Shown here: one piece after another, positions 10,023 to 53,250 of the stretch
Numbering within the stretch: position 1 is the first letter of the stretch
Layout of the letters: each line of letters begins with the position of its first letter
DNA from: Patescibacteria group bacterium
GTDB taxonomy: Bacteria > Patescibacteriota > Minisyncoccia > Phycocordibacterales > JAACPR01
Assembly: GCA_022711495.1 (NCBI GenBank)
Contig: JAKLEX010000001.1
Location: 23,058 to 87,057, forward strand
Length of the DNA: 64,000 nt
Direction of reading: 5' to 3'
Notes under the pieces: model-generated
What the model saw: only the letters and a program-made list of their open reading frames with translations
Told to the model about the DNA's origin: nothing
Databases searched by the model: none
Translations under genes and position numbers: made by a program

Positions 10023-10133
10023 ATTTTTAAATTAAATTATTAATAAAGTTTCAGCAAAGGTAAGTGAGTATTATAGTAACATAGATTCCGAAGACGAGAA
10101 AAATAAAAACCCGCCGATCGCTTTCGCGCCCCC

Positions 10134-10166
10134 TCCTTTGTTTCATGGGCGACTATCGGGAATCGG
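10134..10166. repeat. Distal copy of a 33-bp perfect direct repeat that duplicates the tRNA-His 3' end (18 nt) plus 15 nt of downstream flank
   Basis: ctcctttgtttcatgggcgactatcgggaatcg is identical to 10278-10310, 144 bp away. Confidence 0.9.
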
Positions 10167-10277
10167 TCACAGGTTCGGCTACGCCGACCCGCGACCCCGA
10201 CTCACTCGCTACGCTCGCTCCGTCTTTCGATTCCGAAGTCTTCCTGAAACAAAAGTCGCCGACTCGTTCCGAGCCGG

Positions 10278-10310
10278 CTCCTTTGTTTCATGGGCGACTA
10301 TCGGGAATCG
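10278..10310. repeat. Proximal copy of the 33-bp direct repeat; it overlaps the genuine 3' end of tRNA-His
   Basis: Identical 33-mer. It includes the T-arm 3' half and the acceptor 3' strand of the tRNA-His gene on the minus strand. Confidence 0.9.
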
Positions 10311-10365
10311 AACCCGAATCGAGAGTTCCACAAACTCTTGTGTTAACCGTTACACCATAGTCGCC
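10293..10365 (-). tRNA. tRNA-His (anticodon GTG) with a genomically encoded G-1
   Basis: I folded this cloverleaf by hand. The acceptor is GCGACTA/TAGTCGC, and an extra 5' G pairs with C73. D-stem GTGT/ACAC. Anticodon stem AGAGT/ACTCT with loop TTGTGGA. T-arm TCGGG-TTCGATT-CCCGA. No CCA is encoded. Confidence 0.85.
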
Positions 10366-12864: not shown

Positions 12865-12869
12865 CTGTG

Positions 12870-12943
12870 TGGGCGCTAAGGGACTTGAACCCCTGACCTA
12901 CCCGGTGTAAACGGGTTGCTCTAGCCAACTGAGCTAAGCGCCC
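12870..12943 (-). tRNA. tRNA-Val (anticodon TAC)
   Basis: Hand-folded: acceptor GGGCGCT/AGCGCCC, D-stem GCTC/GAGC, anticodon stem ACCCG/CGGGT with loop TTTACAC, T-arm AGGGG-TTCAAGT-CCCTT. Confidence 0.85.
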
Positions 12944-12974
12944 AAATTCAATTTTCTATTTTAATACAAGTTAC

Positions 12975-13038
12975 GGTCCTGACCTGCCCGGTGTCTGTCT
13001 GAAGCTGGGGTTGCTCTAGCCAACTGAGCTAAGCGCCC
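12975..13038 (-). pseudogene. Truncated tandem copy of tRNA-Val: 5' 31 nt identical, anticodon region replaced, no T-arm/acceptor 3' strand
   Basis: GGGCGCTTAGCTCAGTTGGCTAGAGCAACCC is identical to tRNA-Val positions 1-31. It continues CAGCTTCAGACAGACACCGGGCAGGTCAGG, retaining ACACCGGG-AGGTCAGG but with a 15-nt substitution in the anticodon loop. It then diverges. Confidence 0.7.
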
Positions 13039-13094
13039 AACAGAATGAGAATACCAAAAAAAAAGAAGAGTGGCTAGATAGTAAATAGAATTAA

Positions 13095-17404: not shown

Positions 17405-17491
17405 GGAGAGATGGCAGAGTGGTTGAATGCACCGGTCTTGAAAACCGGAACATCCGAAAGGGTGTCGTGAGTTCGAATCTCACTCTCTCCG
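17405..17491 (+). tRNA. tRNA-Ser (anticodon TGA), class II
   Basis: Hand-folded: acceptor GGAGAGA/TCTCTCC, anticodon stem ACCGG/CCGGA with loop TCTTGAAAA (anticodon TGA), long variable arm, T-arm GTGAG-TTCGAAT-CTCAC, discriminator G. Confidence 0.8.
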
Positions 17492-17675
17492 CAACGACTT
17501 GTGAAGACGGGCAAAGCTCGTCTGAACAAGGCGTCTGCGAAAATAGCGAGGGTGAGATGAGAAAGACGGACTGAGCGAAAATGAGCGAAGCGAATTTTTG
17601 CGAAGGAGTCGGGGTCGCGAACACTTAGATTTTTACGAGCCGAGTTTAGCGAGGCGAAGTAAAAAGCTTAGTGAT

Positions 17676-17703
17676 TCGTGACCGAATCTCACTCTCTCCG
17701 CAA
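17676..17703. repeat. Direct repeat of the tRNA-Ser 3' end, 190-209 bp downstream of the tRNA
   Basis: cgaatctcactctctccgcaa at 17683-17703 is identical to 17474-17494 (21 bp exact), with an imperfect extension (tcgtga-ccgaatctc vs tcgtgagttcgaatctc). It overlaps the stop codon of the HD-domain gene. Confidence 0.85.
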
Positions 17704-18472: not shown

Positions 18473-18567
18473 CTGATCCGCTCCTGTTTTGATGTCTTTA
18501 TATGTACTCGAACTCCTCCACTTCCTGGCGGATTATAACAACACGAGTGGACATTTGTCAAATGCCC

Positions 18568-18610
18568 GCATCTAAAACACCGCGTCTAAAACACCGCGTC
18601 TAAAACACGC
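18568..18610. repeat. Three tandem copies of a 14-bp unit (c[a/g]tctaaaacaccg), ~100 bp upstream of the small GC-rich ORF
   Basis: catctaaaacaccg-cgtctaaaacaccg-cgtctaaaacacgc. Iteron- or operator-like. Confidence 0.8.
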
Positions 18611-39070: not shown

Positions 39071-40174
39071 TTAGCGGTTCATCGGCATAACCAAGTACAA
39101 AAAGCTCTTGTCACTAGTTCCCTGAATAATCATCGGCTTTTCCGCGCCACTGAATTTCAGAGTCAGACCGTCTGATTTTATTGAATTAAAACAATCATTG
39201 ATATATCTGCTGTTAAAACTCAATTTCAGGCTGTCTCCGTTAATCTGGCACTTAATATTATTTTTGGTTTCACCAACTTCACTAGAATTTGATTCTATCT
39301 GAAATATCTCGTCTTTCGGAGAAATAGTGAAAGTAACCTGATTGAATTTATCGGCAAAAACACTAGAAACTTTCAAACACTGTTGCAAATCGTCTTTCAA
39401 GACATGAACTTCCGTTTTCACTTCCTTGGGAATAATCTGGCGGTAGTCCGGAAAAACACCGTCTATAACGCGTGAAATTATGGTCATTTCGTGCGTTTCC
39501 ACGATAATCTTGTCTTGCTCAAAACAAACCTCTATTTCTTCGTCCAAGTCCTCAAGAAGACGAACCATTTCCACGGTATTCTTATAAGGAATTAGGATGT
39601 TCTCAAAAGTATCAACATTTTTGACTAAAATTCGGCTTTCGGCCAATCTAAACGAGTCAGTGCCAACGAAAACCAAATCCCCATCGTCATGATAGACATA
39701 AACGCTGGACAATTCCGGCTTAATACTTGAAGTGGCGGTGCTGTACCAGACCGAATTTAAGCCTTTAACCAAATCCGAGGAGCTAATTTTGAATAATTTG
39801 TCGGATTTCTTATCGGAAATAACTGGAAAATCATCAACTGATTGGGTGTTTATAATCGTGTCGGTAGATTCGCTAGTCACATGTAGCTTGGAATTGTTGG
39901 CTTCCAGTTTGATGACTGAATCTCGCTTAGGCAAATTTGTCAGAAAAGAATTTAAAATAGCCGCCGGGACTAAAACTTTGCCAGTTCCACTGCCTTTCAC
40001 CTTAGAGACGATTTTCAGACTAATATCCAGATTGGTTGAATTGATTGTCAGATCCGTGCCGTCAAAATCAAACATCAAACAAGACAAAGCCGGCAAGGTT
40101 GAACCTTTGGTGGCAATTTTTTCGGCTTTACTGACGATCCTTGTTAGTCTTTCTTTATTAATCTCTATTTTCAT
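39071..40174 (-). CDS. dnaN: DNA polymerase III beta sliding clamp
   Basis: 367 aa with a three-domain beta-clamp pattern. It follows dnaA. Confidence 0.9.
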   Translation of the reverse strand: MKIEINKERLTRIVSKAEKIATKGSTLPALSCLMFDFDGTDLTINSTNLDISLKIVSKVKGSGTGKVLVPAAILNSFLTNLPKRDSVIKLEANNSKLHVTSESTDTIINTQSVDDFPVISDKKSDKLFKISSSDLVKGLNSVWYSTATSSIKPELSSVYVYHDDGDLVFVGTDSFRLAESRILVKNVDTFENILIPYKNTVEMVRLLEDLDEEIEVCFEQDKIIVETHEMTIISRVIDGVFPDYRQIIPKEVKTEVHVLKDDLQQCLKVSSVFADKFNQVTFTISPKDEIFQIESNSSEVGETKNNIKCQINGDSLKLSFNSRYINDCFNSIKSDGLTLKFSGAEKPMIIQGTSDKSFLYLVMPMNR

Positions 40175-40199
40175 TTTATATAAAATTATTTTTTATTAT

Positions 40200-40345
40200 T
40201 AATCCTGTGGATTTGTGTATAAGTCCGGCAGAGCTTTAAATATCTCGGTTAAATTGAAATCTTTTTTCAGACAAACTGTGAAATAAAAATGGATAACGCA
40301 TTTTTATGTGAATAACTTTTTGTCTTGTTAATTCTTATCCACATT
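40200..40345. promoter_or_regulatory. Predicted oriC: a cluster of DnaA-box motifs in the AT-rich dnaA-dnaN spacer
   Basis: A perfect TTATCCACA lies at 40335-40343. Near-matches are TGTGAATAA (40307-40315), TGTGTATAA (40215-40223), TGTGGATTT (40207-40215) and TGGATAACG (40291-40299). The flanks are AT-rich. Confidence 0.6.
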
Positions 40346-40411
40346 TTCCTGAAACTTTTCAGAAGCTTTTTAACAAAGAACGCAAACCTTTCCCACAGCT
40401 TTTCCGCAAAT

Positions 40412-41761
40412 TTATAACATCGACCGGATTTGCGTTAGCTGCTGTGAGAGAGAGTTGTCGGTTTTAAGATCCCCTTTAATCTTTTCGCAAGAATGAATGA
40501 CCGTGGTGTGATCTCGGCCGCCCAATTTTTCACCAATGGTCGGATATGAAATGCTAAAGTCTTCTCGCAAGATATACATTACTATCTGACGAGGTCTAAC
40601 GACTTCTTTTCGTCGAGTTTTATCGCAGATGCTCTTTTCTTCTATATTGAAGAAGTCGGAGACGATCTTTATCAATTCGTTAACCGAGACCATTTTCTTT
40701 GGTTTGGCGCTATTTTTGATTAAATCCTTAATCTCATTGAAAGACAGGGCCTTTCCTTTCAGTTGAGTCTGACAAATGATTGAATTTACCGCCCCTTCAA
40801 GCTCTCTAATGCTTCCCTCAACGGCTTTGGCAATGTAGTCAAAGGTTTCCTTATCCAAGCGAATATTGTTCTTTTCAGCCTTAGATTTGAGGATGGCGAC
40901 CCGGGATTCATGGTCGGGAGCGGTAATGTCAACCATCATACCCTGATTAAAGCGGGATTTTAGCCTCTCTTCCAGGCCAGGGATAAAATTTGGGTGTTTA
41001 TCCGAAGAAAAGATGATTTGTTTATTGTTGTCATACAGAGTGTTGAACAAGTGGAACAGTTCTTCTTGCGTTTTTTCCTTGCCGGACAAAAACTGAATGT
41101 CGTCCATGATCAAGACATCATATTTTCTGTATTTGTCCTTGAAAAGGTTTACTTTGTTTGTTTGGACGGCGCCGATGTATTCAATAGCGAATTTTTCCGA
41201 GGTCAGATAGTAAATTCGTTTGTCGGGGTTTTGCGTTTTTATGGTATTCCCTACCGCTTGAAGCAAGTGAGTCTTTCCGTTTCCGGTGTTTCCATAAATG
41301 AACAACGGGTTGTAAACAATTCCCGGTTGTTTGATGACAGCTTGCGAAGCGGCGTGAGCTAACTCATTGAACGGACCGATGATAAAATTTTCAAAGGTAT
41401 ATCGCGGATTTAAATTATCTTCTTTGTTGATGTAAAAATCGGCCAAAGGAAGTTCATTGACTTGCGTTTTTGGTTTGACGATGACATTTTTCTTTACTTT
41501 GTCGGTCTTAGAAACGATAAACTCAAGAGATCGGACCTCGTCGGAGATATCCCGCAGAGTTTTTAGGATGTCTTTGTGAAATTTGCTGTTCAACCAGTCC
41601 TTTACGAAGCTGTTGGGTACGCCGATATGGACAACGCCGTCGTCAATTTTAGTAATAAACGTATCTTTAAACCAAGTATTGAAATTCGCTTTAGAAACCT
41701 GATTTTCTAAAATATTCAGAGCGTCTTCCCAGATGTTTTTGTGTTCAAAGATTCCCGACAT
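40412..41761 (-). CDS. dnaA: Chromosomal replication initiator protein DnaA
   Basis: The AAA+ Walker A is GNTGNGKTHLLQAVGN. The DnaA signature includes the basic loop GRDHTTVIHSCEKI in domain IV. Confidence 0.95.
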   Translation of the reverse strand: MSGIFEHKNIWEDALNILENQVSKANFNTWFKDTFITKIDDGVVHIGVPNSFVKDWLNSKFHKDILKTLRDISDEVRSLEFIVSKTDKVKKNVIVKPKTQVNELPLADFYINKEDNLNPRYTFENFIIGPFNELAHAASQAVIKQPGIVYNPLFIYGNTGNGKTHLLQAVGNTIKTQNPDKRIYYLTSEKFAIEYIGAVQTNKVNLFKDKYRKYDVLIMDDIQFLSGKEKTQEELFHLFNTLYDNNKQIIFSSDKHPNFIPGLEERLKSRFNQGMMVDITAPDHESRVAILKSKAEKNNIRLDKETFDYIAKAVEGSIRELEGAVNSIICQTQLKGKALSFNEIKDLIKNSAKPKKMVSVNELIKIVSDFFNIEEKSICDKTRRKEVVRPRQIVMYILREDFSISYPTIGEKLGGRDHTTVIHSCEKIKGDLKTDNSLSQQLTQIRSML

Positions 41762-41870
41762 TGCTTAGATTTAAAATGTTGCTCCATTATATACCCGAAA
41801 GCAAGATGGGGAACTTGCTCAAAATAATTAATTATGTTAAAAACATGTTAATAACCTGTTAATTATTTTT

Positions 41871-42005
41871 ATGTCAATTACATATCAACCGAAGAAAAGA
41901 AAGCGATCAAAGACCCATGGCTTTTTAGTGCGTAGCCGCTCTAAAGGTGGCCGAAGAGTTCTCAAAAGCCGAAGACAAAAGGGCCGAAAAAGAATCTCAG
42001 TTTAA
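41871..42005 (+). CDS. rpmH: 50S ribosomal protein L34
   Basis: [44 protein letters not shown] is canonical L34 at 44 aa. It is not in the ORF track because it is below the length cutoff. Confidence 0.9.
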
Positions 42006-42322
42006 TGCTTCTCTCAAAAAATAGAATATCCGCCGGAGACCTTCAGGAAATATTTAAGAGTGTCAGCAACTCTGTCAGTTCCAAATTCTTTTATCTCAAA
42101 AAAAGATTGAACAATTTGAATTATTCCAGATTTGCGGTGATCATCCCCCAGAAGATTTCTAAGTTGTCAGTGGCCCGGCACCGAAACAAGAGAAAAGTTA
42201 TGAACCTACTCAAAAAAATCGGCACTACTGGTAATTATGATTACGTTTTAACTTTGAAAAAGAGGGTCGACGATGTCGTGACCGGAGAATTGGAGGCCGA
42301 CTTGGTTAAAATTTTAATTTAG
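42005..42322 (+). CDS. rnpA: Ribonuclease P protein component
   Basis: It has a 4-nt ATGA overlap with rpmH. It is basic, at 105 aa. The central RNR-like region is ARHRNKRK. This is the classic rpmH-rnpA-yidC context. Confidence 0.8.
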   Translation: MLLSKNRISAGDLQEIFKSVSNSVSSKFFYLKKRLNNLNYSRFAVIIPQKISKLSVARHRNKRKVMNLLKKIGTTGNYDYVLTLKKRVDDVVTGELEADLVKILI

Positions 42323-42339
42323 GATATCATTTCATTAAT

Positions 42340-43101
42340 ATGAAAGCGTTGTTTGTTAGTCTTGTTGTTCGACCATTTTATAATGCTTTGATTTTGTTAA
42401 TGGATTTTGTCACCAGCGATATCGGCATTGCGTTGGTAATTTTAACTTTAGTTTTTCGTTTTATTCTCTTCCCTCTTTATCGAAGTCAGATTCGCACGCA
42501 AATAAAAATGGGACAGGTTCAAGAACCGCTCAAAAAAATTCAAGAGAAGTATAAAGACGATCGCGAAACAATGGGGCGGGAGATGTTGAAACTCTATCGG
42601 CAAAACAAAATTAATCCATTTTCTGGAATTCTGATAATGATTATTCAGTTGCCATTGCTTATCGGTTTTTATTATGTTTTTTCCAGATCAGGTCTGCCGA
42701 ATATAAATGAAAATCTTTTATACTCATTCGTTTCGTGGCCGGAAAACATTAACACCATGTTTCTTGGTTTAATTGATATGACCGGTAAAAGTCTGCCGTT
42801 GGCGATTATCGTCGGCATAACGCACTTTTTCCAAATGCGCCTAATGCTACCGAAGAAAAAGGAGGCTCAAGAGGGCGATAAACCCGGGGGTTCTAAAGAA
42901 AATATGATGAGGAGCATGCAGACGCAGATGAGCTATTTTATGCCTGGAATGATGGCGGTGATGGCCTATACGCTTGGTTCAATGGTGGGCTTGTATTTCT
43001 TTGTCGGTGGACTTATTTCCATCGGACAGGAATTTTATATAAGAGAAAACATCCGCAAACCGGAAGAAGAAAGATTGAAAAAAGAGAAAAACGGCAACTA
43101 A
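42340..43101 (+). CDS. yidC: Membrane protein insertase YidC (short Oxa1-like form)
   Basis: 253 aa with 5 TM helices. The conserved YidC core is present (IALVILTLVFRFILFPL; NPFSGILIMIIQLPLLIGFYYVF) and there is a basic C-terminal tail. Confidence 0.85.
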   Translation: MKALFVSLVVRPFYNALILLMDFVTSDIGIALVILTLVFRFILFPLYRSQIRTQIKMGQVQEPLKKIQEKYKDDRETMGREMLKLYRQNKINPFSGILIMIIQLPLLIGFYYVFSRSGLPNINENLLYSFVSWPENINTMFLGLIDMTGKSLPLAIIVGITHFFQMRLMLPKKKEAQEGDKPGGSKENMMRSMQTQMSYFMPGMMAVMAYTLGSMVGLYFFVGGLISIGQEFYIRENIRKPEEERLKKEKNGN

Positions 43102-43102
43102 A

Positions 43103-44392
43103 CTATTCCGTGATTTCAGCGTTCGGTCGGATGTCTAAACTCCAAAGTGACAAATCTTTTTTATTTTGAAAGACCAAATATTCCTCCTGTTCGTTTAGGG
43201 AAATGTTTGAGATGTCAAAAATTAATGGAAAGCCGGTGAACATCGTGGCGGTGTCTTCTTTCAGATTGATTTCAAAAATACTGTCGTTAAACGAGACGGC
43301 ACCCAAATACCAATCGTCCGGATAATCCGCCGAAGCTAAATTCGTCGGAACGGCGCAATAAACAATGTCAGTATTTTTTTTGCCCCAAACACATTTGTCG
43401 GCCAAAGTGCGAACGGTGAGTGGCTTATCCTCGTTAGTGCTTAGATCATAAATGCCGGTGGAAATCGTATCGCCGTTATATTCCGAATATAAAATTTTTG
43501 TTAAGTCCGGGCTAGTTTTGGTTGCCAATCCGTATTTGTCATCAAGAAGTTTTGAGAGGTTTCCGTTTGTTGGATTCATGGCAAAAGCGAATCCTTCTGA
43601 AAGCCACGAAGGTTTTGTCGTCAAAATAATTGTGTTGTTAATCCACTCCGCCAACCATTCGGTTATAGGATATTCAAAAACTAAGGTTTGAGCTTGCGGA
43701 GCCGCGCCATCAAAAGTGTAACCGCGGTTATCTTTTATGAAGAAGAAGGAATCTTTGGTTGGAGATTTGATCAAAGTCGAGACGTTTTTTGGTAGAAATG
43801 ACCCATTCAAAGCTGAATAAATGCTTTCGTCTTCGGCAATGTTAGGATCGGCTGGGGCGTCTTCAATCTTGCCGACGAAGGTCTCAATATCATTATTATC
43901 GTCCAGATATCTCAATATCACGCCGTCTCCGGAGTTAAAGAACATTGCTTCTTGGACTTTAGGTATGGTCGTGTTTGTAACTCGACTGACAGTTAGGCGA
44001 TTCTCGGTGGTTTCATAGACATTTCCAGAGGCCCTATGAACGAAGCGATAAACCGTTTCAGTTTGATTCCTTTGAGACTCGGGAATTGTCGTGTCGTTCG
44101 GATTTATTTTTCTCTCAAAAGTCGTGAAGCCGGAAACTAATGTTGGAGTGATTTGTCGCAATTTTGGAATCTGACCGATATTTTCCAATTCCGTCGAGGT
44201 TGTTTCTTCGGCGGCAGTGGTGTCGGCGCTTGTGCCGGATGTTGGGAAAGAGAATTCGGCGTCTGTTCCGCCCGAAGTTTCACCGCCGGTTGTGCCAGCC
44301 TCTTGTCCGGAGAAGATAATAAGATAGCCGACCGATAGTCCGGCCAAGACGACTACTGTTGCTAATATTATTATGGCTGTTTTGCGTGTCAT
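43103..44392 (-). CDS. Membrane-anchored hypothetical protein, last gene of the T4SS-like module
   Basis: It has an N-terminal TM helix and a Gly/Thr-rich linker. A ~350-aa beta-rich ectodomain follows. No motifs I recognise. Confidence 0.4.
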   Translation of the reverse strand: MTRKTAIIILATVVVLAGLSVGYLIIFSGQEAGTTGGETSGGTDAEFSFPTSGTSADTTAAEETTSTELENIGQIPKLRQITPTLVSGFTTFERKINPNDTTIPESQRNQTETVYRFVHRASGNVYETTENRLTVSRVTNTTIPKVQEAMFFNSGDGVILRYLDDNNDIETFVGKIEDAPADPNIAEDESIYSALNGSFLPKNVSTLIKSPTKDSFFFIKDNRGYTFDGAAPQAQTLVFEYPITEWLAEWINNTIILTTKPSWLSEGFAFAMNPTNGNLSKLLDDKYGLATKTSPDLTKILYSEYNGDTISTGIYDLSTNEDKPLTVRTLADKCVWGKKNTDIVYCAVPTNLASADYPDDWYLGAVSFNDSIFEINLKEDTATMFTGFPLIFDISNISLNEQEEYLVFQNKKDLSLWSLDIRPNAEITE

Positions 44393-44401
44393 GGATTGTC
44401 T

Positions 44402-45235
44402 TTATGGTACGAGTCCTTCCATCTCCAAGACTCTTTGAATGTTTGGCGGAGAGGTTGGATCTGAGTTTTGATTACTGAAAAAATCAATTTGTGATTCCGT
44501 AGCTATTGGTCCACTATCGATCTGATTATTAATTTCTGCCTGTGCGGCCGGACTCAGTGTGGGGGCGGGACCACTGATACTTAACTGTTGGCCCATAAAC
44601 GAGGAGTTTATTTTTGTTTCTGTCGCGTTGCCAGGTTTTTTTAACTCAGATGAAACGTAGGCGGCATCAACTTTATTTGCTGGCTGCGTGTCCGATATAT
44701 CACCCAGACTAGGAGACACAACCCTGGGGCGATTTGCGCCGTCGCCGCTAGCGCCGGAAACGCTATTATCCGCCGTATTTTTTACCCCAATATCCAAATT
44801 CAACAGCGCCGGATTTATCTCGTGCAAAATCAGCCACGATACCAAAGCCAAAATTAGACCGGCGATTGCCGACTCTATTTTTGCCCAGCCTTCTTTTTTG
44901 TCAAAAACTGCATCAGTCGTCATATATTGTATGGCGCCGAGCAGAATAAACAGAACGGCTAAAATAATGGCGATAGCCACGGTCCAATTAAAAAGTTGCT
45001 TTAAGACTGCACTTAAAGATGTCTTTGAGGTACCAGTTCCCTGACCTTGATCAAACAATCCTTTGCCGGATATCGGAACATAGTTTGCCACGGATTGTCC
45101 GGCTTGGGCCAAGCTTTGCTCGCCGGAATTTCTTGTTGCTGTTAAGACATCCGATTGAAAAAGCACGGCGACAAAAATCACCAAGGTGAAAACTATGGCG
45201 GATCCTAATATTATTTTGTTTTGGCGGCTTATCAT
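44402..45235 (-). CDS. Membrane protein with a two-helix hairpin reminiscent of VirB2/TrbC-type pilins, plus a Ser/Pro-rich C-terminal tail
   Basis: It has an N-terminal anchor. Two closely spaced TM helices follow (WTVAIAIILAVLFILLGAIQY; IAGLILALVSWLILHEI), separated by a short loop. Confidence 0.35.
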   Translation of the reverse strand: MISRQNKIILGSAIVFTLVIFVAVLFQSDVLTATRNSGEQSLAQAGQSVANYVPISGKGLFDQGQGTGTSKTSLSAVLKQLFNWTVAIAIILAVLFILLGAIQYMTTDAVFDKKEGWAKIESAIAGLILALVSWLILHEINPALLNLDIGVKNTADNSVSGASGDGANRPRVVSPSLGDISDTQPANKVDAAYVSSELKKPGNATETKINSSFMGQQLSISGPAPTLSPAAQAEINNQIDSGPIATESQIDFFSNQNSDPTSPPNIQRVLEMEGLVP

Positions 45236-46308
45236 ATTGAACTGTTAGCGGAATAAGTTAAAGTCAAGTTGGAAGAAGCGCTTGAATACAAGTTGTTCTT
45301 GTCCAGAATTTTAGCCGAAATGGTGAACTGGCCGGATTCTCCAGAATTACGCCCGAGGATGATTGAATTTGTATTGCCGACGGTTTCAATTCTTGAATTA
45401 TTCAAATACCAGTTATAAGTCAATGATCCCAGATTTCCCAGATTGAAGTAAAGAGGCAAAGCCGTTATCTCAACTTCTTGTCCACTGAGAGTCATGTTCC
45501 CCGTAGCTAGTCTGCTTAATATCAAGCCATTTGTCGGCGCTTTGGCGTAGAGCAGGGTTCTTGATTCGGAATAGCCGATATTTTCAATGGCTTGATTTTG
45601 CAAATTCTGCCCGACGACTTTAGCGGTTACGGTGACGGTGGAAGGATTAGTGAATTCTGTTTTTGGCACAGCAATATAAACATTGCGTCCGGTTCCAGAA
45701 GCCGGTCCGTCCGTCTGACCATTTATTCTCCAGGTGTAGACTATATTTGAGTCATCTATTCTGCGGCCGGCGGAATTCCGGAAATCCGAAATGGCGATGA
45801 ATTTGTGAATTGAACCTGGCACCGGCAGAGCTCGACCTTTATAGAAAGGTGGCGTTGAGGTCAGAGCCTCATCCAATATTGATAATTCGGATGGTGAGAC
45901 TGTGTGCGCCACTTCATACTCACCAGTAGATGTTTTGACTACGGCTTTTATGTTAATGTTTCGGGCGTTTTCACCAACTGTCGTGTTGATACTTTTTAGA
46001 CCAAGACCGCTTGAAATGAATTTTCCGTCAATGTACCAAGAAATCGTGGCTTCATCCACTGGCAGAGAATAACTCTGGATATATATTGAAATGTTGTCGC
46101 CCGGACTTGGGTAGGCGGGGTCGGTGTAGATGGAAATATTTGGAGTTATTTCAGGCAAAGAGTCCAGAAATCCTTCAATATCAGTTAAGTCAACGGTGGT
46201 GTTGTCACCGGCCCCGTTAGCTGGAATAGTTTGAGCAGACACAATTGACGTGCCGAGAACGAGAGAGAAAAATAGCCAAACTATTAGAAATAAGCCTAGT
46301 TTTTTCAT
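45232..46308 (-). CDS. Secreted repetitive beta-rich protein (three related ~90-aa repeats); possible surface or pilus-associated adhesin
   Basis: It has a signal peptide (MKKLGLFLIVWLFFSLVLGTSIVSA). Repeated motifs are ISWYIDGKF / IVYTWRINGQ / LTYNWYLNNSRI. Confidence 0.45.
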   Translation of the reverse strand: MKKLGLFLIVWLFFSLVLGTSIVSAQTIPANGAGDNTTVDLTDIEGFLDSLPEITPNISIYTDPAYPSPGDNISIYIQSYSLPVDEATISWYIDGKFISSGLGLKSINTTVGENARNINIKAVVKTSTGEYEVAHTVSPSELSILDEALTSTPPFYKGRALPVPGSIHKFIAISDFRNSAGRRIDDSNIVYTWRINGQTDGPASGTGRNVYIAVPKTEFTNPSTVTVTAKVVGQNLQNQAIENIGYSESRTLLYAKAPTNGLILSRLATGNMTLSGQEVEITALPLYFNLGNLGSLTYNWYLNNSRIETVGNTNSIILGRNSGESGQFTISAKILDKNNLYSSASSNLTLTYSANSSI

Positions 46309-46381
46309 CAGTATAATTATAGCAAACCGCCTGTTTTTGTTAATTAAAGCGAGCAGGTTTCGGGCGAGGAATTGATGTGCC

Positions 46382-48262
46382 TTAAAATCCCTCCAAATCC
46401 TTCTGAATTTTTCTAATACTGGATTCCTGCAAGTCTTGTTTGCCGGAATTTTTCAATTCCTGCTTGCTTCTCTTGATACTTAAAATTTGGGCCGGATCGG
46501 AAGTGATGATCTGATCTTCAGCGTAGGAGCCGATGACTTTAATGGCCACGTGTTTTAGTCCGGCAAAAAAGATTCCCTCTCCGACGTTGGATTCAAGCAG
46601 CAGATATTTCTCTTCCTCGGTTAAATTGAATGTTCTCTGGACAATATCAATTGATGAAACTGATTGTTTCATCAGCAGTTGCATTGAGGAGTTGCTGATA
46701 ATTGGCACGCCGTATGGAGAATTTAAGAAGTCCTCAACGTCTTGCGTGATTGTTGAAAGCCCCAAGAAATATTTTCGTCCTCTTTTAGCCAAACCAAGCA
46801 AGAACGAAGCGGTGTCTTCGGATTTCATCATCCACCAAGCTTCGTCAATGACCAGCAGTCTCTTTCTCAAATCTTTTCGTATGGCCGTCCAAATGTAGCG
46901 GGTGATGATGTACATGGCGATCGGCTTCAATTCGTCTTCCATGTCGCGCAGAGCGAAGACGATGAAGTTTTTATTGATGTTGACGTTGGTTGGTTTATTC
47001 AAAAATCCCGCCCAAGTTCCTTGAGTGTATTTCGTTAATTTCTGTGCCAAATTTTCCGCTCCTTCCATTCCGGCCAAAACAAGGGCAAAGTCGGACATCA
47101 AAGGTGGCTCAATTTGCGAGAAGTCAGATTCCGGCGTGATATCTTTTAGAGCGTAAGTCTCGGTGATGGCGCGATCAATGATGGCGTCTTCTTCTGGTGT
47201 TAATCCGCCGAACATTAGTCGGAATAAACCGACCAAGTTTATAATGTTTGATCGCAAAACATCAGCTGGTTGTTCGTCCGGCCGCGGAGTCGGAATGTCA
47301 AACGGATTGATGTGGTGATTTGAAGTCAGAGAGATGGTAAAGAAGCGTCCGCCAGCGGCTTCGGCCATGTATTCGTATTCTCTTTCCGGGTCAATGACGA
47401 TGACTTCTATGCCGAACATCAAAGAACGCAGAATTTCCAGTTTGGTGGTATATGATTTTCCGGCACCGGCTTTGGCGAAGGTAACAGAGTTATAGTTTTC
47501 CAATGAGAACCGGTCAAATAGAATCAATCCGGAATTGTGTCGGTTTATTCCGTAAAGAATTCCGCGGTCGGAAGTCAATTCAAATGAGATGAATGGGAAG
47601 ATGCTGGAAAGGGGCTCAGAATTTAATTGCGTGTGAATTCCCAGTAAGTCGGTTCCGACCGGAATAATACTTTTGAAAGCTTCTTCTTGTTGGAAAATGG
47701 CTGGTTTTACATAAACGAGCTTTGATTCTAGAAGTGACTTGAATTCGGATTCAAACTTATCAAGTTCGTCGTCGGTGTTTCCGTATATTGAAATGTATAA
47801 TCCGACGTCAAAAACCTTCTCTGTGGCTTGTTGCAGACTATCTCGCAGAGCCTCCAGGTCGCGGTAAGCCGTGTCTAACTTTGGGTCGCGCACTAGACCT
47901 TTTTCCGTGCGAAGGTTGATTTGACTCTCTACCTCGGCGACTTTCTTTTGGAATTTTCTCAAAATAACAGTGGTGTCTATCGGGTGAACGAAAATTGAAA
48001 CGTCAAAAATTTTATCTAGATTGATTACCGGCGAGAACCAGCTGTCGGCCAAAAAGCGCGGATAAGAAATGACGAAGAAACTGCGAACGACTTTATCACC
48101 CAAATTCAATTCCCTCGGTGAAACTTTCAAGGCTGGTGGGGCGATGATGTCCCGTAATTCCAAAACTCCCGCTTCATATATTTGTTGCGGCAAAAACGAA
48201 GTGATCCTTGGATCCTCTATTTTTGTGTTTTTTTTGCCTTTTAGAAAATCTAAGATTCCCAT
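46382..48262 (-). CDS. VirB4/TrbE/CagE-family T4SS ATPase, C-terminal 626-aa portion (ATPase domain)
   Basis: The Walker A is FAKAGAGKSYTT and the Walker B is LLVIDEAWWMM. The size and order match VirB4 homologues. Confidence 0.8.
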   Translation of the reverse strand: MGILDFLKGKKNTKIEDPRITSFLPQQIYEAGVLELRDIIAPPALKVSPRELNLGDKVVRSFFVISYPRFLADSWFSPVINLDKIFDVSIFVHPIDTTVILRKFQKKVAEVESQINLRTEKGLVRDPKLDTAYRDLEALRDSLQQATEKVFDVGLYISIYGNTDDELDKFESEFKSLLESKLVYVKPAIFQQEEAFKSIIPVGTDLLGIHTQLNSEPLSSIFPFISFELTSDRGILYGINRHNSGLILFDRFSLENYNSVTFAKAGAGKSYTTKLEILRSLMFGIEVIVIDPEREYEYMAEAAGGRFFTISLTSNHHINPFDIPTPRPDEQPADVLRSNIINLVGLFRLMFGGLTPEEDAIIDRAITETYALKDITPESDFSQIEPPLMSDFALVLAGMEGAENLAQKLTKYTQGTWAGFLNKPTNVNINKNFIVFALRDMEDELKPIAMYIITRYIWTAIRKDLRKRLLVIDEAWWMMKSEDTASFLLGLAKRGRKYFLGLSTITQDVEDFLNSPYGVPIISNSSMQLLMKQSVSSIDIVQRTFNLTEEEKYLLLESNVGEGIFFAGLKHVAIKVIGSYAEDQIITSDPAQILSIKRSKQELKNSGKQDLQESSIRKIQKDLEGF

Positions 48263-48264
48263 AA

Positions 48265-48882
48265 TTATTTGTTAGCTTTGAAATCAACATCGCCCGGATT
48301 GAAGATTTTGTAATAAACTTCAATGATTTCTTCCGTGCCAAGATTGGCGGCGCGAACGCCACAACGGCTGATTCCCTGTTTGACGACGGCCACTCTCTGT
48401 TCCAACTGGCTGCGGCTTTCTTCAAAATCGTCAATGCTTTGTTGCTTCTTGTCTTTCTTCGGTCCAAAAAACTTAGCGCCTTTCGTTATATCCAGACTTG
48501 GCGGAGTATAAGGGATGACGATAAAAAAATTTTTAGTCATGATGTTGACGCTCTCGGTGAAACTTTTTATGAAGTTTATGTATTCTCGGCCTTGTATTTT
48601 CAGCAAGTCGTTGGTTTGTTCTTTGACTCGGCCATCAAGCATGGACAAGTAGGGTTTGATATCTAGCTTTCTGGATTGGATGAAAATCTGAATGGTAAAG
48701 TCCAAAGAGTTAAGAAAGTTTTGAAATTGGGAGATGATGGCCTGTTGCTCGTCGGTGGATTTTAGAGCGAAGTTCAAGGAAGAAGTCATCAACAAGGCCC
48801 GCATTGAGCCGTCTTTCAAGATGGCGATACCGTCTCGGACCTCTTTAATTGGGACAAACTCTTGTGATGTCTTAGGGACCAT
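48265..48882 (-). CDS. VirB4-family N-terminal domain encoded as a separate 205-aa ORF
   Basis: VPIKEVRDGIAILKDGSMRALLMTSSLNFALKSTDEQQAII matches the N-terminal consensus of Gram-positive-type VirB4/TrsE proteins. Its stop lies 2 nt before the ATG of the ATPase ORF, in a different frame. Confidence 0.65.
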   Translation of the reverse strand: MVPKTSQEFVPIKEVRDGIAILKDGSMRALLMTSSLNFALKSTDEQQAIISQFQNFLNSLDFTIQIFIQSRKLDIKPYLSMLDGRVKEQTNDLLKIQGREYINFIKSFTESVNIMTKNFFIVIPYTPPSLDITKGAKFFGPKKDKKQQSIDDFEESRSQLEQRVAVVKQGISRCGVRAANLGTEEIIEVYYKIFNPGDVDFKANK

Positions 48883-48897
48883 TCCTGATATTATACA

Positions 48898-49305
48898 CTA
48901 TTTTATATTCTCATTAATATCCAAACTCCAAGAAAGATCTTTCAGTTTGCTGTCGGAAAGCTTCGGTATGGCGATAGGCGATTCGGCGGCGGAAGTTTCT
49001 TCTTTTTTCTCCTCAAGTTTTTTTGGAACTTTTTTCCAGATATATTTCTTATTACCGATGAAATATTTCATGGAGTTTTCAAAAGTCTGAACAAACGGTT
49101 GCCAGCCGTCAAATTTAAAGAAGGCAAACATTAACAATAAAATGACTATCGGCGCACCGACAATTACGGCGATAATCGGCGGAAGGATGTTCCAGACGAT
49201 AAATCCGGTCGCGGCCGCGCCACCGACATACAAAAATTGCTTAGCGGTGAGCGAACCGAATATTTTGTCTTCTACTTCTAGGAATTGTGGAACTTGGTAT
49301 CTCAT
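48898..49305 (-). CDS. PrgI-family (VirB3-like) small T4SS membrane protein
   Basis: MRYQVPQFLEVEDKIFGSLTAKQFLYVGGAAATGFIVW is the hallmark N-terminal motif of the PrgI family (MxYQVPQFIxxEDKIxGPLTxKQF). Two TM helices follow. Confidence 0.8.
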   Translation of the reverse strand: MRYQVPQFLEVEDKIFGSLTAKQFLYVGGAAATGFIVWNILPPIIAVIVGAPIVILLLMFAFFKFDGWQPFVQTFENSMKYFIGNKKYIWKKVPKKLEEKKEETSAAESPIAIPKLSDSKLKDLSWSLDINENIK

Positions 49306-49314
49306 GATCAGTGT

Positions 49315-49965
49315 CTAATCTAGCGGTTCTCGGTACGGATCAACCGGTCGGGATTTTTGAATGTTGGCGTTAGTGTTGGCGACATCGGCACCACCGGTTG
49401 AAATGACATGACTTTCTTTTTGGGCTTCGGTGGTGTTCAATAATTTCTTTTCAAGAATGGTGTCTTTAGGTAAGTCCTCAATAACAACTTCATTATCTAT
49501 TCCGAGAGCTGGCTCAGGCGGTATTTCCGGAACCGGAGCAACAGATTCTCCGCCGGCCGAGATGATTTCTACCTCAGAATTTTCTCGAGAGCTTCCTTGT
49601 TCTACTGCTTTCTTGGCAGCCTCTTCGGCTTTTTTCTCTTCCTCCTCAAGTTCTATGAGTTGTTGCTTGATGTTTTGGAAGATTTCTTCTTCAACCGAAT
49701 TTACTATTTTACTCAAAACCTCCGGACTTAGATTAAGTTCTTGTCTTAATTTATTCATGTAGTCGCGCGGACTGGTTATGCCGAGCATCACGAGAAATGT
49801 TTCAGTTTCCAGAACGCTAGCATCACCGATGACTAAGTTATTTTTTTGAGCGATGATTCGGATTTTTTGTTCCCAATGTGAATTGACAATGGCCTCTTGA
49901 ATAGACTTTGGTAGCGCCCGGAAGCGTTCGATGATTATTTGGTTGTTGGATTCGCCTGATTCCAT
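49315..49965 (-). CDS. Hypothetical acidic protein within the T4SS-like module
   Basis: 216 aa, soluble and Glu-rich in the middle. Unknown function. Confidence 0.4.
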   Translation of the reverse strand: MESGESNNQIIIERFRALPKSIQEAIVNSHWEQKIRIIAQKNNLVIGDASVLETETFLVMLGITSPRDYMNKLRQELNLSPEVLSKIVNSVEEEIFQNIKQQLIELEEEEKKAEEAAKKAVEQGSSRENSEVEIISAGGESVAPVPEIPPEPALGIDNEVVIEDLPKDTILEKKLLNTTEAQKESHVISTGGADVANTNANIQKSRPVDPYREPLD

Positions 49966-49984
49966 AATACGCTATTAAATTATT

Positions 49985-52204
49985 TTATTTCTTTTTGTTA
50001 TCACCGCCCCCGCCGGATTTTTCTTCTTTGTCCTCTTTCTTTATTTCTTCTCTCATCTCTTTTGCCATTTCTTCTTTTAATTTGTCGCGCTCACTTTTTT
50101 TCATTTGCTTTAGACGAGCTTGAACTGCGGCATTTGAATGAGTCCTGTGTATTAGGTTGCCTCTAAATGGATTAAAACGAGCGCCAGCGTATTTGCCGCC
50201 CAAGCTTTTAACCGCTTGTTCCATGGCCGCGTCAATCATTTTGTTTTGTGCTTTTTCTGCTTCCGATTTTAGTCCCTCCTGTTTTTTTATCTCTTCTCCT
50301 GAAGTGCCTATTGAATTTTGTGCGGCTGTTTTTATCTGAGTCAGACGATTCATTTCTTGTTGTGTCTGTGTTAGTTCGGCGTTGGAGAGGCCTCCTTTTT
50401 GTAATTTTACAGTTAAGGCAGCAATTTCGGCGTCAACCTGGTCTAACTTGGCCTTGTTGTCTTTGGTTGACTGATTTTCAGAATCAATTTTTGATTGTGC
50501 CTGCTTAATTTTGTCTGTCTCGTCTCTATATTCCTGTCTGTTCTTTGCTATGTCCCCAGCTTTCTTTTTGATATTATCGTCGGTCTGTCTATCTTCTGGT
50601 CTTCTGAACTTGTCTCGTTCCTTTTCCAATTTCAGATCTTCTTTGACTCTCTCTTCCGTCAGACCGGCGTAACCTTTATCGGCGCCCTTGGCGGGTTTAC
50701 CAAAATCAAGGCCTGCGCCTTTCAGGCCGGCCTTAGCTCCTGCGGCTTGTCTAATATCAAAACTTCTCTTTGAGGCCCAGTCGCCGACTCTTCCCAATGA
50801 TCTCGCGATTTTGCCGGCTCCCTCTCGTTGCCCGACTGCGCTTAGAGCCGCACCAACTCGTCCGAATGTGCCACGGCCAACCGCGGCGATGCCTCCGGCG
50901 CCAATGGCCGCTCCAAACTCCGCACCAACTGCGCCGAGTTTTTTGCCGATCATCACGGAGCCGATTATGAAGCCAAGGACGATTATTAGATTAATGAATA
51001 TTCCAATGGTACTGGTATCGTTTTGAGTCGCTATCGATAAGGCGTTATCAGTTGAAACAAAAGTTGTGGTTCCCTTGAGTAGGCCGCCAGATATTTCATA
51101 TGTTATGTAGAGCATCAAGAACATCACTGGAAGTGATATGAGCTGCTCTGATAATTTCTTTGACCAACTTTTTGTGTGTTCTTCTAGTTTTGGTAATATC
51201 CATCCGCCGAACATGATTGGCGAAAGTATTAGCAGGAATATTAGGGTTATGAATCTGGAGAATATAACTGCCGAAACGCTGAATAGTACGACGGCCACAA
51301 TCAGAAGTACTACGCCGATAGCAATATATCCCAAAATTTTTTGTCCCAGATTTAATTGATTGCTTTCCAGAATGTCTGTCGCTGCGCTGTCATTATTACC
51401 TATCATTCCGCTATTAGGTTTATAGGCGCCTGACAACTGTAATTTATTGACTAAACAATTTGATAGGCCGCCGTCGGTGAAATATTCCACTCTATTAATC
51501 TTGGATTCGCTGGTAAGCGGTTCGAGAGTTTCTTTTTTTGCCCCCAAGGTTTCGGTCGGGATATCGCACCCGGTCATTTTGTCGTAGAAACTTAGTGCCA
51601 ATATATTTGATATGTCGATCAATACTGTGGTGAAGAAGAAACTAAAATTTATCAAAAGTGCGGCCATTATGACCATTCCCAGTCTCTTTCTAATGTTTTC
51701 CGTCCACCCGCTGACTATTGTCAATATTGATATATATAACAGACCGAATATAAACAGGATATTTATTACATCTCTAAAAACTGACCAACCCAGTCTTATG
51801 GCCTCCGAGTTTGTAATCGTATAACCCATTTTCATGATCCCCAGTATGACAGAGGCATTTAGTATCGTACCTGCGGCGAACAAGACCCACGCGCATAGTT
51901 GTTTAAACACCTTGGGCAAGAATAGTATAATGGATTGAATTCCTTCGACGAAACCGGTATAAATTTCACTAAACCAGCCCCTTTTTTCTTTTCTTAATTC
52001 ATCCCTAGTAACAGCCTGGTCATCAGGGTTTGACGCGGCTGATGCCGCGCTAGTATCACCCGCATAATACTCGGAGTAATCGTACTCTCCGACTTGAGCG
52101 AGTGCCCTTGGGCTTGTTCGTGATGGCAGAATAAAGGCACATGCTACCAGTATAATCAGCAACCACTTTACAAGCACAATTCTTTTGTTCAAGAGTGTAG
52201 GCAT
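49985..52204 (-). CDS. VirB6/TrbL-like polytopic membrane protein with a long C-terminal coiled-coil/charged tail
   Basis: 739 aa. It has a signal/anchor and at least 6-8 TM helices in the first ~430 aa. A Gly-rich segment follows, then a Lys/Glu/Gln-rich coiled-coil. This architecture is typical of VirB6-type channel subunits. Confidence 0.55.
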   Translation of the reverse strand: MPTLLNKRIVLVKWLLIILVACAFILPSRTSPRALAQVGEYDYSEYYAGDTSAASAASNPDDQAVTRDELRKEKRGWFSEIYTGFVEGIQSIILFLPKVFKQLCAWVLFAAGTILNASVILGIMKMGYTITNSEAIRLGWSVFRDVINILFIFGLLYISILTIVSGWTENIRKRLGMVIMAALLINFSFFFTTVLIDISNILALSFYDKMTGCDIPTETLGAKKETLEPLTSESKINRVEYFTDGGLSNCLVNKLQLSGAYKPNSGMIGNNDSAATDILESNQLNLGQKILGYIAIGVVLLIVAVVLFSVSAVIFSRFITLIFLLILSPIMFGGWILPKLEEHTKSWSKKLSEQLISLPVMFLMLYITYEISGGLLKGTTTFVSTDNALSIATQNDTSTIGIFINLIIVLGFIIGSVMIGKKLGAVGAEFGAAIGAGGIAAVGRGTFGRVGAALSAVGQREGAGKIARSLGRVGDWASKRSFDIRQAAGAKAGLKGAGLDFGKPAKGADKGYAGLTEERVKEDLKLEKERDKFRRPEDRQTDDNIKKKAGDIAKNRQEYRDETDKIKQAQSKIDSENQSTKDNKAKLDQVDAEIAALTVKLQKGGLSNAELTQTQQEMNRLTQIKTAAQNSIGTSGEEIKKQEGLKSEAEKAQNKMIDAAMEQAVKSLGGKYAGARFNPFRGNLIHRTHSNAAVQARLKQMKKSERDKLKEEMAKEMREEIKKEDKEEKSGGGGDNKKK

Positions 52205-52211
52205 AATTCAT

Positions 52212-53246: not shown

Positions 53247-53250
53247 TTAC

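Follow-up and report, generated by a model that had tools for sequence, protein, structure and literature searches.

Two small inserts, one behind the gene for the serine transfer RNA (tRNA-Ser) and one behind that for tRNA-His, were analyzed in a stretch of 64,000 nucleotides from a Patescibacteria group bacterium (GenBank assembly GCA_022711495.1, contig JAKLEX010000001.1, positions 23,058 to 87,057), hereafter called the window. With a probability of about 55%, both inserts belong to one previously unannotated family of small, non-autonomous elements that are structured at the RNA level and ride on stable-RNA transcription units across Patescibacteria, also called the candidate phyla radiation (CPR). 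The family itself exists, and its copies always lie on the strand of a tRNA, 5S rRNA, transfer-messenger RNA (tmRNA) or other highly expressed gene. Restricted to Patescibacteria, it is apparently an undescribed folded non-coding element of ~90-150 bases, which probably acts as RNA within a stable-RNA precursor.

A typical copy consists, in order, of the host 3′ end (X), a terminator-type hairpin with A- and T-tracts, an inverted arm (X′), an A, hairpin P2, the dinucleotide GG, hairpin P3 and a second X. X′ is the reverse complement of the last 10-28 nt of the host gene. At tRNAs it spans T54, the 3′ strand of the T-stem and part or all of the 3′ strand of the acceptor, and the second X starts at T-loop C56 and is host-identical up to at least 20 nt (33 nt in the tRNA-His copy of the window). 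X′ and the host terminator hairpin form a long hairpin, H1, which is the predicted minimum free energy (MFE) state; in an alternative predicted fold, X′ pairs with the downstream copy of X and closes a three-way junction. At tRNA-Ser these parts are located as follows.

17405-17492, + strand: tRNA-Ser(tga), the intact host gene (ARAGORN; Rfam tRNA, 64.8 bits).
17474-17494, + strand: first copy of X, the tRNA-Ser 3′ end from T-loop C56 to 2 nt beyond the discriminator (exact 21-nt direct repeat).
17498-17530, + strand: hairpin at the tip of H1, CTTGT-GA-AGACG / CGTCT-GA-ACAAG (read from the sequence; MFE fold).
17546-17563, + strand: X′, an imperfect reverse complement of tRNA-Ser positions 54 to ~69 (local alignment, 13/16 matches).
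17565-17610, + strand: P2 hairpin of the module, GAC-G-GA-CU-GA-GC...GC-GA-AG-GA-GUC (covariance-model alignment; covariation).
17613-17683, + strand: P3 hairpin of the module, GGUCGCG...bulged A...CGUGACC (covariance-model alignment; covariation).
17683-17703, + strand: second copy of X, a direct copy of the tRNA-Ser 3′ end from C56 (exact repeat), whose opposite strand codes L-R-R-E-stop of an HD-domain gene.

The original prediction, made from the letters of the window, had claimed that the last 21 nt of tRNA-Ser recur 209 bp downstream across an intervening sequence of ~190 bp. CGAATCTCACTCTCTCCGCAA was indeed found exactly at 17474-17494 and 17683-17703, and 188 nt separate both copies. 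The proposed imperfect extension of the repeat to ~28 nt did not hold: the upstream TCGTGAC is the 3′ strand of P3, whose YGTGAC is present in all copies and only resembles GTGAG of the tRNA-Ser T-stem. The gagcgaag-type motifs described as loosely repeated are present, and they are explained as both strands of P2 plus a 20-nt insertion in the P2 loop. The second repeat does supply the stop of the HD-domain gene, whose open reading frame (ORF) ends ...DNLRRE*; the stop (17689-17691) and the last four codons (17692-17703) of this convergent gene lie wholly within the second copy, and homologous HD proteins terminate 1-3 residues sooner. The covariance-model alignment placed the 20-nt insertion in the apical loop of P2 and another of 37 nt in the apical part of P3, and because of these two insertions the Ser insert is longer than the His insert. 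The hairpin at 17498-17530 occupies the same place as the terminator hairpin of other copies, but it has no T-run and was not called as a terminator in the terminator scan; X′ pairs with the first tRNA copy in the MFE fold. Both tRNA-Ser 3′ ends (17490-17494 and 17699-17703) read ...CCGCAA; the three related genomes L166-L168 encode ...CCGCCA, with a genomic CCA.

The second copy follows tRNA-His on the opposite strand, and a truncated unit lies beyond it.

10292-10364, − strand: tRNA-His(gtg), host of the second window copy (ARAGORN; Rfam).
10258-10278, − strand: predicted intrinsic terminator hairpin B, which immediately follows tRNA-His and makes up the tip of H1 (terminator scan; MFE fold).
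10226-10250, − strand: X′, the reverse complement of tRNA-His positions 54-76 plus trailer (local alignment, 28 columns, 3 single-base gaps).
10165-10224, − strand: module, with P2 at 10199-10224, GG at 10197-10198 and P3 at 10165-10196 (covariance-model match 10152-10240, 73 bits).
10133-10165, − strand: second copy of X, in which 19 nt of tRNA 3′ end, beginning at C56, are followed by 14 nt of trailer (repeat search).
10084-10132, − strand: second, truncated unit with terminator-like hairpin A and a second X′ (CTTCGGAATC, 10084-10093) (82-nt repeat; comparison with L169 and L170).

Here X′ runs on from the terminator stem and extends that stem by ~28 columns into the tRNA. The direct repeat is exact over 33 nt (10278-10310 and 10133-10165), including 14 nt of trailer, and the two X-terminator-X′ units share 77% identity over 82 nt, with exact identity over 33 nt. 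The truncated unit adjoins the native promoter of a DsbA-like gene. No ORF was found within the 188-nt Ser insert or the 113-nt His insert.

Read in tRNA orientation, the two inserts share the two blocks that had been proposed, GAAAGACGGA with 10/10 matches and GAGTCGGGGTCGCG with 14/14 (17606-17619 on the + strand, 10190-10203 on the − strand); no further copies of the 14-mer exist in the window. The common order is GAAAGACGGA, GCGA, GAGTCGGGGTCGCG and ...GTGAC, and in both inserts the tRNA copy starts straight after GTGAC, at T-loop C56. The 14-mer taken alone is weak evidence and only modestly improbable, since at least two matches with no more than two mismatches occurred in 7 of 100 shuffles, which is what could be said for a chance likeness of two GA/GC-rich intergenic stretches. 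That explanation, to which practically no weight is left, was refuted by the covariance model described below (E 5e-24 and 2e-19), by dozens of collinear copies elsewhere and by negative control loci.

The seed GCGANNGAGTCGGGGTCGCG was scanned against one genome per species and matched at least 120 stretches. Among the matches listed, ~108 were chance occurrences in high-GC genomes and 12 came from low-GC genomes or metagenome-assembled genomes (MAGs) of Patescibacteria (Saccharibacteria, Paceibacterota, Nomurabacteria, Taylorbacteria and others); these 12 loci share the architecture of the window. A longer pattern led to 33 further loci in JGI metagenomes. A covariance model, R1, built from 31 distinct copies of other genomes gave 64 matches at E<=1 in 52 sources, 57 of which, at ~20 bits or more and in 43 CPR loci, were taken as copies, and it picked up divergent copies that the patterns had missed. 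R1 found exactly two sites in the window, at tRNA-His with 73 bits (E 5e-24) and at tRNA-Ser with 60 bits (E 2e-19), so that two of its seven tRNAs carry the element; 100 high-GC loci with a chance seed, used as a control, scored no more than 22 bits. The same architecture with a collinear conserved core at both tRNAs is thereby borne out, and the view of the original prediction that a family of small elements or a recurrent mechanism, not two accidents, lies behind them stands on a homologous module with ~57 copies in 43 CPR loci and on empty sister sites. The loci of the window, whose source is a Candidatus Paceibacterota MAG, were found identical in GCA_035454325.1 and in JGI assemblies. 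Decayed copies of X occur in L013, L043 and L130, and tandem units in L037, L128, L133 and the His locus of the window. Four features go beyond what had been predicted: an inverted arm (X′), a terminator hairpin, covariation of RNA type and confinement to Patescibacteria.

The conserved module of ~65 nt comprises two hairpins, P2 followed by GG and P3. In P2, a base of 3 bp is combined with a bulged G and with tandem G-A/A-G motifs (GAC-G-GA-NN-GA-GC-loop-GC-GA-NN-GA-GUC). P3 follows the pattern GGUCGCG-NN-variable stem-AGCA loop-stem-A(bulge)-NN-YGUGACC; its G-U pair and its bulged A are both invariant, its loop is of the AGCA type and it ends in YGUGAC. Fold statistics were taken from an ungapped 95-column alignment of 31 distinct copies. 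For 23 pairs of P2 and P3, 95.5% of the cells were paired, versus 25-41% when the 3′ partner was slid by 1-3 columns, and both-sided changes occurred at 11 pairs. The covariation score was 0.44, versus 0.05-0.15 in the slid controls, and was reached by 0 of 500 shuffles; RNAalifold predicted the same helices without being given the structure. Of the two variable P2 pairs, the first occurs as GC, GU, CG or AU and the second as CG, UA or UG, and the two pairs flanking the bulged A appear as GG/CC, GA/UC, AG/CU, CA/UG, AA/UU and UA/UA. In divergent members the base of P2 is compensatory as well (GAC/GUC, GGC/GCC, GCC/GGC). Compensatory changes apparently beyond relatedness were found, in copies seeded by a conserved pattern, and this covarying fold, together with the R1 matches and the control loci, answers the doubt that the shared blocks might be low-complexity sequence with no further copies.

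The G-U pair at 50:78 is present in 31/31 copies, another position alternates between G-C and G-U, and G-U cells are far more numerous than A-C cells. Because of this excess, only the tRNA-sense strand can form the structure; the module fold is supported by covariation and is specific to that strand. Several variants of the module were also observed. Between tRNA-Met and the main module of L133 and L153 lies a divergent sister module in tandem with the canonical one, with a P2 of GGCGC-GACG-GCGCC and a compensatory P3 base, GGCUGCGG/CUGUAGCC in place of GGUCGCGG/CUGUGACC. An AT-rich mini-hairpin of ~20 nt, GCGATTTAGYAAAATCGTC / CAGATTTTAGCAAAAATCTG, recurs nested in apical loops of P2 or P3, at L152 (P2 loop and P3), L136 (P3) and L013 4566-4687 (P2 loop), and the common P3 tip GAATTTTTCAGCAGAAAAATATC looks like a unit of this kind.

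Searches for known families returned no match to the element. At the Rfam 15 gathering threshold the window gave its seven tRNAs alone, 18 further loci gave tRNA, 5S, tmRNA and large-subunit rRNA alone, and a scan of the clean copy L055 at E<=10 gave the tRNA and sub-threshold noise alone. In IMG/VR no exact pattern match was found and the best covariance-model score was 13 bits, and neither INPHARED phages nor PLSDB plasmids gave a BLAST match. The neighboring genes are housekeeping ones (IF2, EF-G, LepA, S20, RuvX, HD, DsbA). All-against-all clustering of the ORFs within 3.5 kb of 40 copies gave housekeeping families alone, with no recurrent partner. The window has 62 ORFs of at least 110 aa; a Pfam scan of 57 of them detected no integrase, transposase, reverse transcriptase or HUH enzyme, and the names of the remaining five come from precomputed Pfam marks. 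No description was found in the literature on the sequence string, on CPR structured RNAs, on CPR repeats and MITEs (miniature transposable elements with inverted repeats), or on non-autonomous elements that target terminators or tRNAs.

Related genomes provided empty sites at both tRNAs, a comparison that had been proposed as a check. Relatives with a RuvX ~75% identical keep the adjacency of RuvX and tRNA-Ser, and after their tRNA there is no hairpin, module or 3′ copy. Relatives likewise share the orthologous order of a Na/Ca-exchanger, tRNA-His and a DsbA-like gene without the element: after tRNA-His, the DsbA promoter follows at 12 nt in L169 and one terminator is present in L170. When the DsbA promoter of these relatives is aligned to window positions 10070-10083, ~208 nt (10084-10291) are extra in the window, which corresponds to one full unit plus the truncated unit (terminator A and the second X′). 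A simple tandem duplication at the His locus was considered and rejected, given the ~208 nt that the window has in excess of the empty site and the 77% identity between the terminator units. R1 had no match in any empty-site locus. An empty site was not obtained through synteny of the HD gene, of which three homologues (58-65% identity) do not lie beside tRNA-Ser. Sister genomes therefore lack the element at the same two tRNAs, and the comparison points to insertion rather than ancestral sequence.

The 43 loci (305 kb) contain 60 tRNAs, 23 of which, from 15 isoacceptors, have a module within 140 nt downstream and six have one just upstream. The modules within 140 nt of a tRNA are thus on the same strand in 29 cases and on the opposite strand in none, and the search for further copies next to other tRNAs, proposed as a check, found them in other CPR genomes behind at least 15 isoacceptors. 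The 5S rRNA gene is the host in L037, which has a three-unit array, and in L146. In L037 (a Saccharibacteria MAG, − strand, ~1391-1970) and L146 (161-451), the module array follows the 5S rRNA gene, and every unit has a complement of the 5S 3′ end in front and a copy of that end behind; in the third unit, P2 is divergent. A tmRNA is the host in L145 (6389-6940), with the module ~55 nt downstream on the same strand. In L128 (2617-3999, − strand) two tandem units lie behind the stop codon and terminator of the EF-G gene fusA; X consists of the last ORF codons there, therefore the host need not be an RNA gene. Other copies, termed class 2, sit inside partial 5′ tRNA duplicates, which hold the promoter and positions 1 to ~17-31 and closely precede the intact gene, as at tRNA-Gly, tRNA-Ser(gga) and tRNA-Phe. 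From these host positions it follows that the module always lies in the trailer or leader of a stable-RNA or otherwise highly expressed unit. In L082 and L144, an ORF C-terminus (...YMQYYNNKRKQWARNKMTPVEYRNH...) abuts the element hairpin where a tRNA is expected; by eye this end resembles the C-terminus of an integrase-core (DDE) transposase, and most of the tRNA seems to have given way to an insertion sequence.

The orientation of the copies bears on whether the element works as RNA or as single-stranded DNA (ssDNA). A replication origin at ~41.8-42.3 kb is indicated by dnaN and dnaA (− strand), yidC (+ strand) and a cumulative GC-skew minimum at ~40-42 kb, within 39071-42340. Because dnaN/dnaA and the skew minimum lie there, the Ser copy (17.6 kb, + strand) and the His copy (10.2 kb, − strand), to the left of these marks, belong to one replichore, and since they point oppositely, each following its own tRNA, orientation tracks host transcription and not replication. 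An ssDNA element related to REP/REPIN sequences or derived from IS200/IS605 (PATE), in which H1, P2 and P3 would be read by an HUH (Y1) transposase encoded elsewhere, and in which the downstream host-derived segment would be analogous to the flank that serves TnpB omega-RNAs as a guide, is rather improbable. It would agree with a small, multi-copy element without an ORF, with the strand-specific fold and its conserved bulge and G-T, as in IS608 and REP hairpins, with the strand-specific subterminal hairpins H1 and P3 in the absence of terminal inverted repeats of its own, and with the precise class-2 junctions, which fall after G(T)G and before C and show no duplication of the target. However, the window copies are opposite in one replichore, one having its folded strand on the leading-strand template, and orientation tracks the host gene 29 to 0. 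Direct repeats of 19-33 nt and a target-matched inverted arm are foreign to that family, neither a Y1 transposase nor TnpB was found in the 64-kb window or beside any copy, and invariant G-U pairs are more typical of RNA. The orientation pattern together with these pairs favors an RNA-level element over a lagging-strand ssDNA (HUH-type) one.

The arms X and X′ are derived from the host. In 31 of 46 evaluable copies, X′ has at least 8 nt that match upstream sequence exactly in inverted orientation (shuffled control mean 5.3, maximum 8-10); a direct repeat of at least 8 nt is present in 25 of the 46 and one of at least 15 nt in 16. Straight after YGUGAC, 16 of the 46 copies have at least 15 host-identical nucleotides, and others have only 4-11. 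In class 1, arranged as X-terminator-X′, the inverted partner is located 50-73 nt upstream; the distance in class 2 is 0-8 nt, and a compact conserved hairpin results, TTGAATTGC-GAATACNTGGA-GCAATTCAA. The closing helix P1 of class 1, formed by X′ and X, is 84% paired with double changes at 7/11 pairs; since the tRNA is the source of both arms, this follows from the construction. The X′ of L013 fits the tRNA, but its downstream copy is decayed; in L140, X′ fits the downstream copy. One subfamily keeps the outer arm GCTGGAGGA(A/C)C, the complement of acceptor, discriminator and CCA, at different tRNAs.

Direct repeats of this kind at tRNA 3′ ends also recall decayed integrase-type elements (prophages or integrative and conjugative elements, ICEs) at the tRNA T-loop, with the repeats as attL/attR and the core as an attP arm. 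The repeats (21 nt at Ser, 33 nt at His) start at T-loop C56, pass the tRNA 3′ end and have a variable right boundary, matching the T-loop class of tRNA integration sites that Williams is said to have described in 2002, and the insert restores an intact tRNA. This origin is nevertheless very improbable: the inserts have only 113-188 nt and no ORF, and the same compact architecture recurs in >40 independent loci, whereas decay events independent of one another would not all end at 95 nt. Covariation in the core is compensatory and of RNA type, the searches of IMG/VR, INPHARED and PLSDB gave no copy and those of the window no integrase, and the element is also present behind 5S rRNA, tmRNA and fusA terminators and inside 5′ tRNA fragments.

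On the preferred reading, as a family of RNA-level elements on stable-RNA units, a class-1 element would be carried in the 3′ trailer through terminator read-through and a class-2 element in the 5′ leader, where a duplicated tRNA promoter and 5′ fragment would precede it. X′ would pair with the gene's own 3′ end, lengthening the terminator hairpin, or with the downstream copy, forming the three-way junction. The element may be selfish and non-autonomous, moved by a factor encoded elsewhere, and its target-matching X′ and X would set it at the end of a conserved, highly transcribed gene; because the intact gene and its terminator remain upstream, insertion would be tolerated and the selfish element could persist. 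A more specific proposal, put forward tentatively and as possible rather than likely, is a mobile RNA whose ~65-nt core carries an exchangeable X′ that homes by pairing to stable-RNA gene ends. Pairing of X′ just upstream of the terminator hairpin would bring the 5′ end of the element beside the 3′ end of the terminated gene or transcript, so that pairing, and not a sequence-specific protein, would select the site (guide-directed homing to terminators or tRNA ends). Ribozyme or ligase chemistry or a so far unrecognized CPR enzyme could be involved, and the tRNA-like closing helix might borrow tRNA-processing enzymes. Spread by homologous recombination through the conserved tRNA, or an origin by template switching, may be other routes.

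Several points weigh against the family being a mobile RNA-level element. No trans-acting enzyme and no circular or autonomous copy "in transit" was found in these searches. In most copies a good intrinsic terminator separates the tRNA from the module, so that transcription of the module relies on read-through. The species with empty sites are 55-75% identical in the flanking proteins, and because of this distance loss instead of gain is formally possible. The reading does not account for the matching of X′ to each new host T-stem; in L148, X′ is mismatched to the local T-stem, though the downstream copy matches. Sampling was seeded by a conserved pattern of 20-36 nt and the scan matches were partly listed, so the counts are not estimates of prevalence. 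Moreover, P2 and the base of P3 are extremely conserved in sequence from one CPR class to another, which would also suit a host-beneficial RNA or a protein-binding site.

This last point leads to a structured RNA that benefits the host, which we consider conceivable yet unlikely. It would serve in protein binding or processing, for example as a handle that an RNase, ligase or chaperone could use, and be purposely built into the precursors of tRNA, 5S rRNA and tmRNA, with X′ and X mimicking the acceptor/T helix for release or stabilization by tRNA-processing enzymes, and it would have spread by duplication and been kept by selection. P2, the base of P3, the G-U pair, bulged A and loop are nearly invariant across distant CPR lineages, which speaks for this reading. 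So do the constant position on the sense strand of highly expressed stable-RNA precursors, the class-2 copies, whose location after duplicated promoters and 5′ fragments of tRNAs is suggestive of selection for expression, and the retention of P1 pairing even where X has otherwise decayed. Yet close relatives lack the element at the same tRNAs, the host varies (15 isoacceptors, 5S rRNA, tmRNA, fusA) with only 2/7 window tRNAs occupied, and truncated, degenerate and tandem copies as well as nested loop insertions are more typical of a selfish repeat.

Other candidates were tried and rejected. Published CPR tRNA group I introns lie at position 35/36 and are unrelated to the element, as are TIGR-Tas arrays, which are 36-nt guide arrays beside tas genes. 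Rfam, which holds the families of known self-cleaving ribozymes, gave no match, and no hammerhead CUGANGA core was seen by eye. The K-turn consensus has a 3-nt bulge, and that of the module is 1 nt. A tRNA-derived pseudogene was dismissed since the tRNA model does not match the module. Fold-back or snap-back synthesis of X′ would account for X-terminator-X′ but not for the module or the direct copy, and remains speculation.

Further features of the window were recorded alongside. The gene for tRNA-Val (12869-12943) is the third in the window to have a partial duplicate, which lies upstream of it at 12946-13040 on the − strand: the 5′ half has an exact 33-nt copy (13008-13040 = 12913-12945), and the duplicate continues as a pseudo-tRNA with a 16-nt stretch in place of the 7-nt anticodon loop before it is truncated at the T-stem. 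The covariance model found no module there, and the duplicate could be a scar, like the 5′ partial tRNA duplicates that host class-2 elements elsewhere. The intergenic region upstream of the HD-domain gene (18566-18608) holds a 14-nt unit, CCGC(A/G)TCTAAAACAC, three times in tandem. At 43103-54189 lies a type IV secretion/conjugation-like cluster (TraG/VirB4-type P-loop ATPase, PrgI, TrbL/VirB6-like, type IV secretion system pilin) that includes several ORFs without a Pfam match, and GC skew reverses locally at ~48-54 kb.

Patescibacteria make up a large share of bacterial diversity and have tiny genomes with little room for junk, and to our knowledge they have hardly been studied at the RNA level. 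The covarying module fits no Rfam family and none of the mobile-element classes tested. If mobile, it would point to a new way of targeting the ends of stable-RNA genes without damaging them, with a possible programmable insertion principle; if it is a host RNA, it would be a new, abundant and CPR-specific one with a likely protein partner. Partial tRNA duplications and "orphan" tRNA fragments of CPR assemblies find an explanation in the element, and the covariance model allows annotators to mask or label such fragments.

Among known systems, the integrases that use the tRNA T-loop (prophages, ICEs and islands) are alike in the repeat of a 3′ segment, the regenerated tRNA, the original 3′ end displaced downstream and the existence of empty relatives. 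In contrast to them, the element has ~110-190 nt, carries no integrase or cargo, possesses a covarying folded core and an inverted arm, is absent from viral and plasmid collections and also uses the terminators of 5S rRNA, tmRNA and fusA. REP, BIME and REPIN sequences and MITEs (Correia, RUP, ERIC) are likewise small, multi-copy, non-coding, hairpin-forming and non-autonomous, with decayed or tandem copies, and they too lie just downstream of genes or terminators. Unlike these, the element has neither terminal inverted repeats of its own nor a short target duplication of fixed length: its ends, …AGACGG and …YGTGAC, are not inverted repeats, its flanking repeats of 4-33 nt are variable and host-derived, and its arms are copied from the target in inverted and direct form. 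It is also tied to stable-RNA or highly expressed genes, oriented with transcription and low in copy number.

Class C group II introns are comparable in their location directly after intrinsic terminators in sense orientation, in a 3′ hairpin with a bulged A ~9 nt from an ...AC end and in a guide-like segment that pairs beside the hairpin. These introns exceed 600 nt, whereas the element has ~95 nt and lacks domain V, domain I and a reverse-transcriptase ORF; there was no match to Rfam Intron_gpII, and the domain-VI-like bulged-A hairpin ending in AC is the sole likeness to the GUGYG...AY and domain V/VI features. Group II introns have been reported absent from Patescibacteria (PMC13011429).

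The omega-RNAs of TnpB and IscB and the bridge RNA of IS110 resemble the element in having sense and antisense target segments and, in part of its copies, a conserved scaffold followed directly by ~20 nt identical to the target. They differ from it in that the element has no adjacent or recurrent effector, its two segments correspond to one and the same stretch of target and form pairs with one another, and several of its guide-like copies have decayed to 4-11 nt. Finally, tRNA-like domains (tmRNA, YrlA, viral tRNA-like structures and retroviral primer-binding sites) are alike in that the closing helix of the element corresponds to T-stem plus acceptor 3′ strand, and the arm of one element subfamily is the complement of T-loop, T-stem, acceptor, discriminator and CCA. 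In contrast to such domains, the element has no mimic of the T-loop or D-arm and no Rfam match, occurs in many copies per genome and mimics whichever gene lies upstream, even a 5S rRNA or a protein gene.

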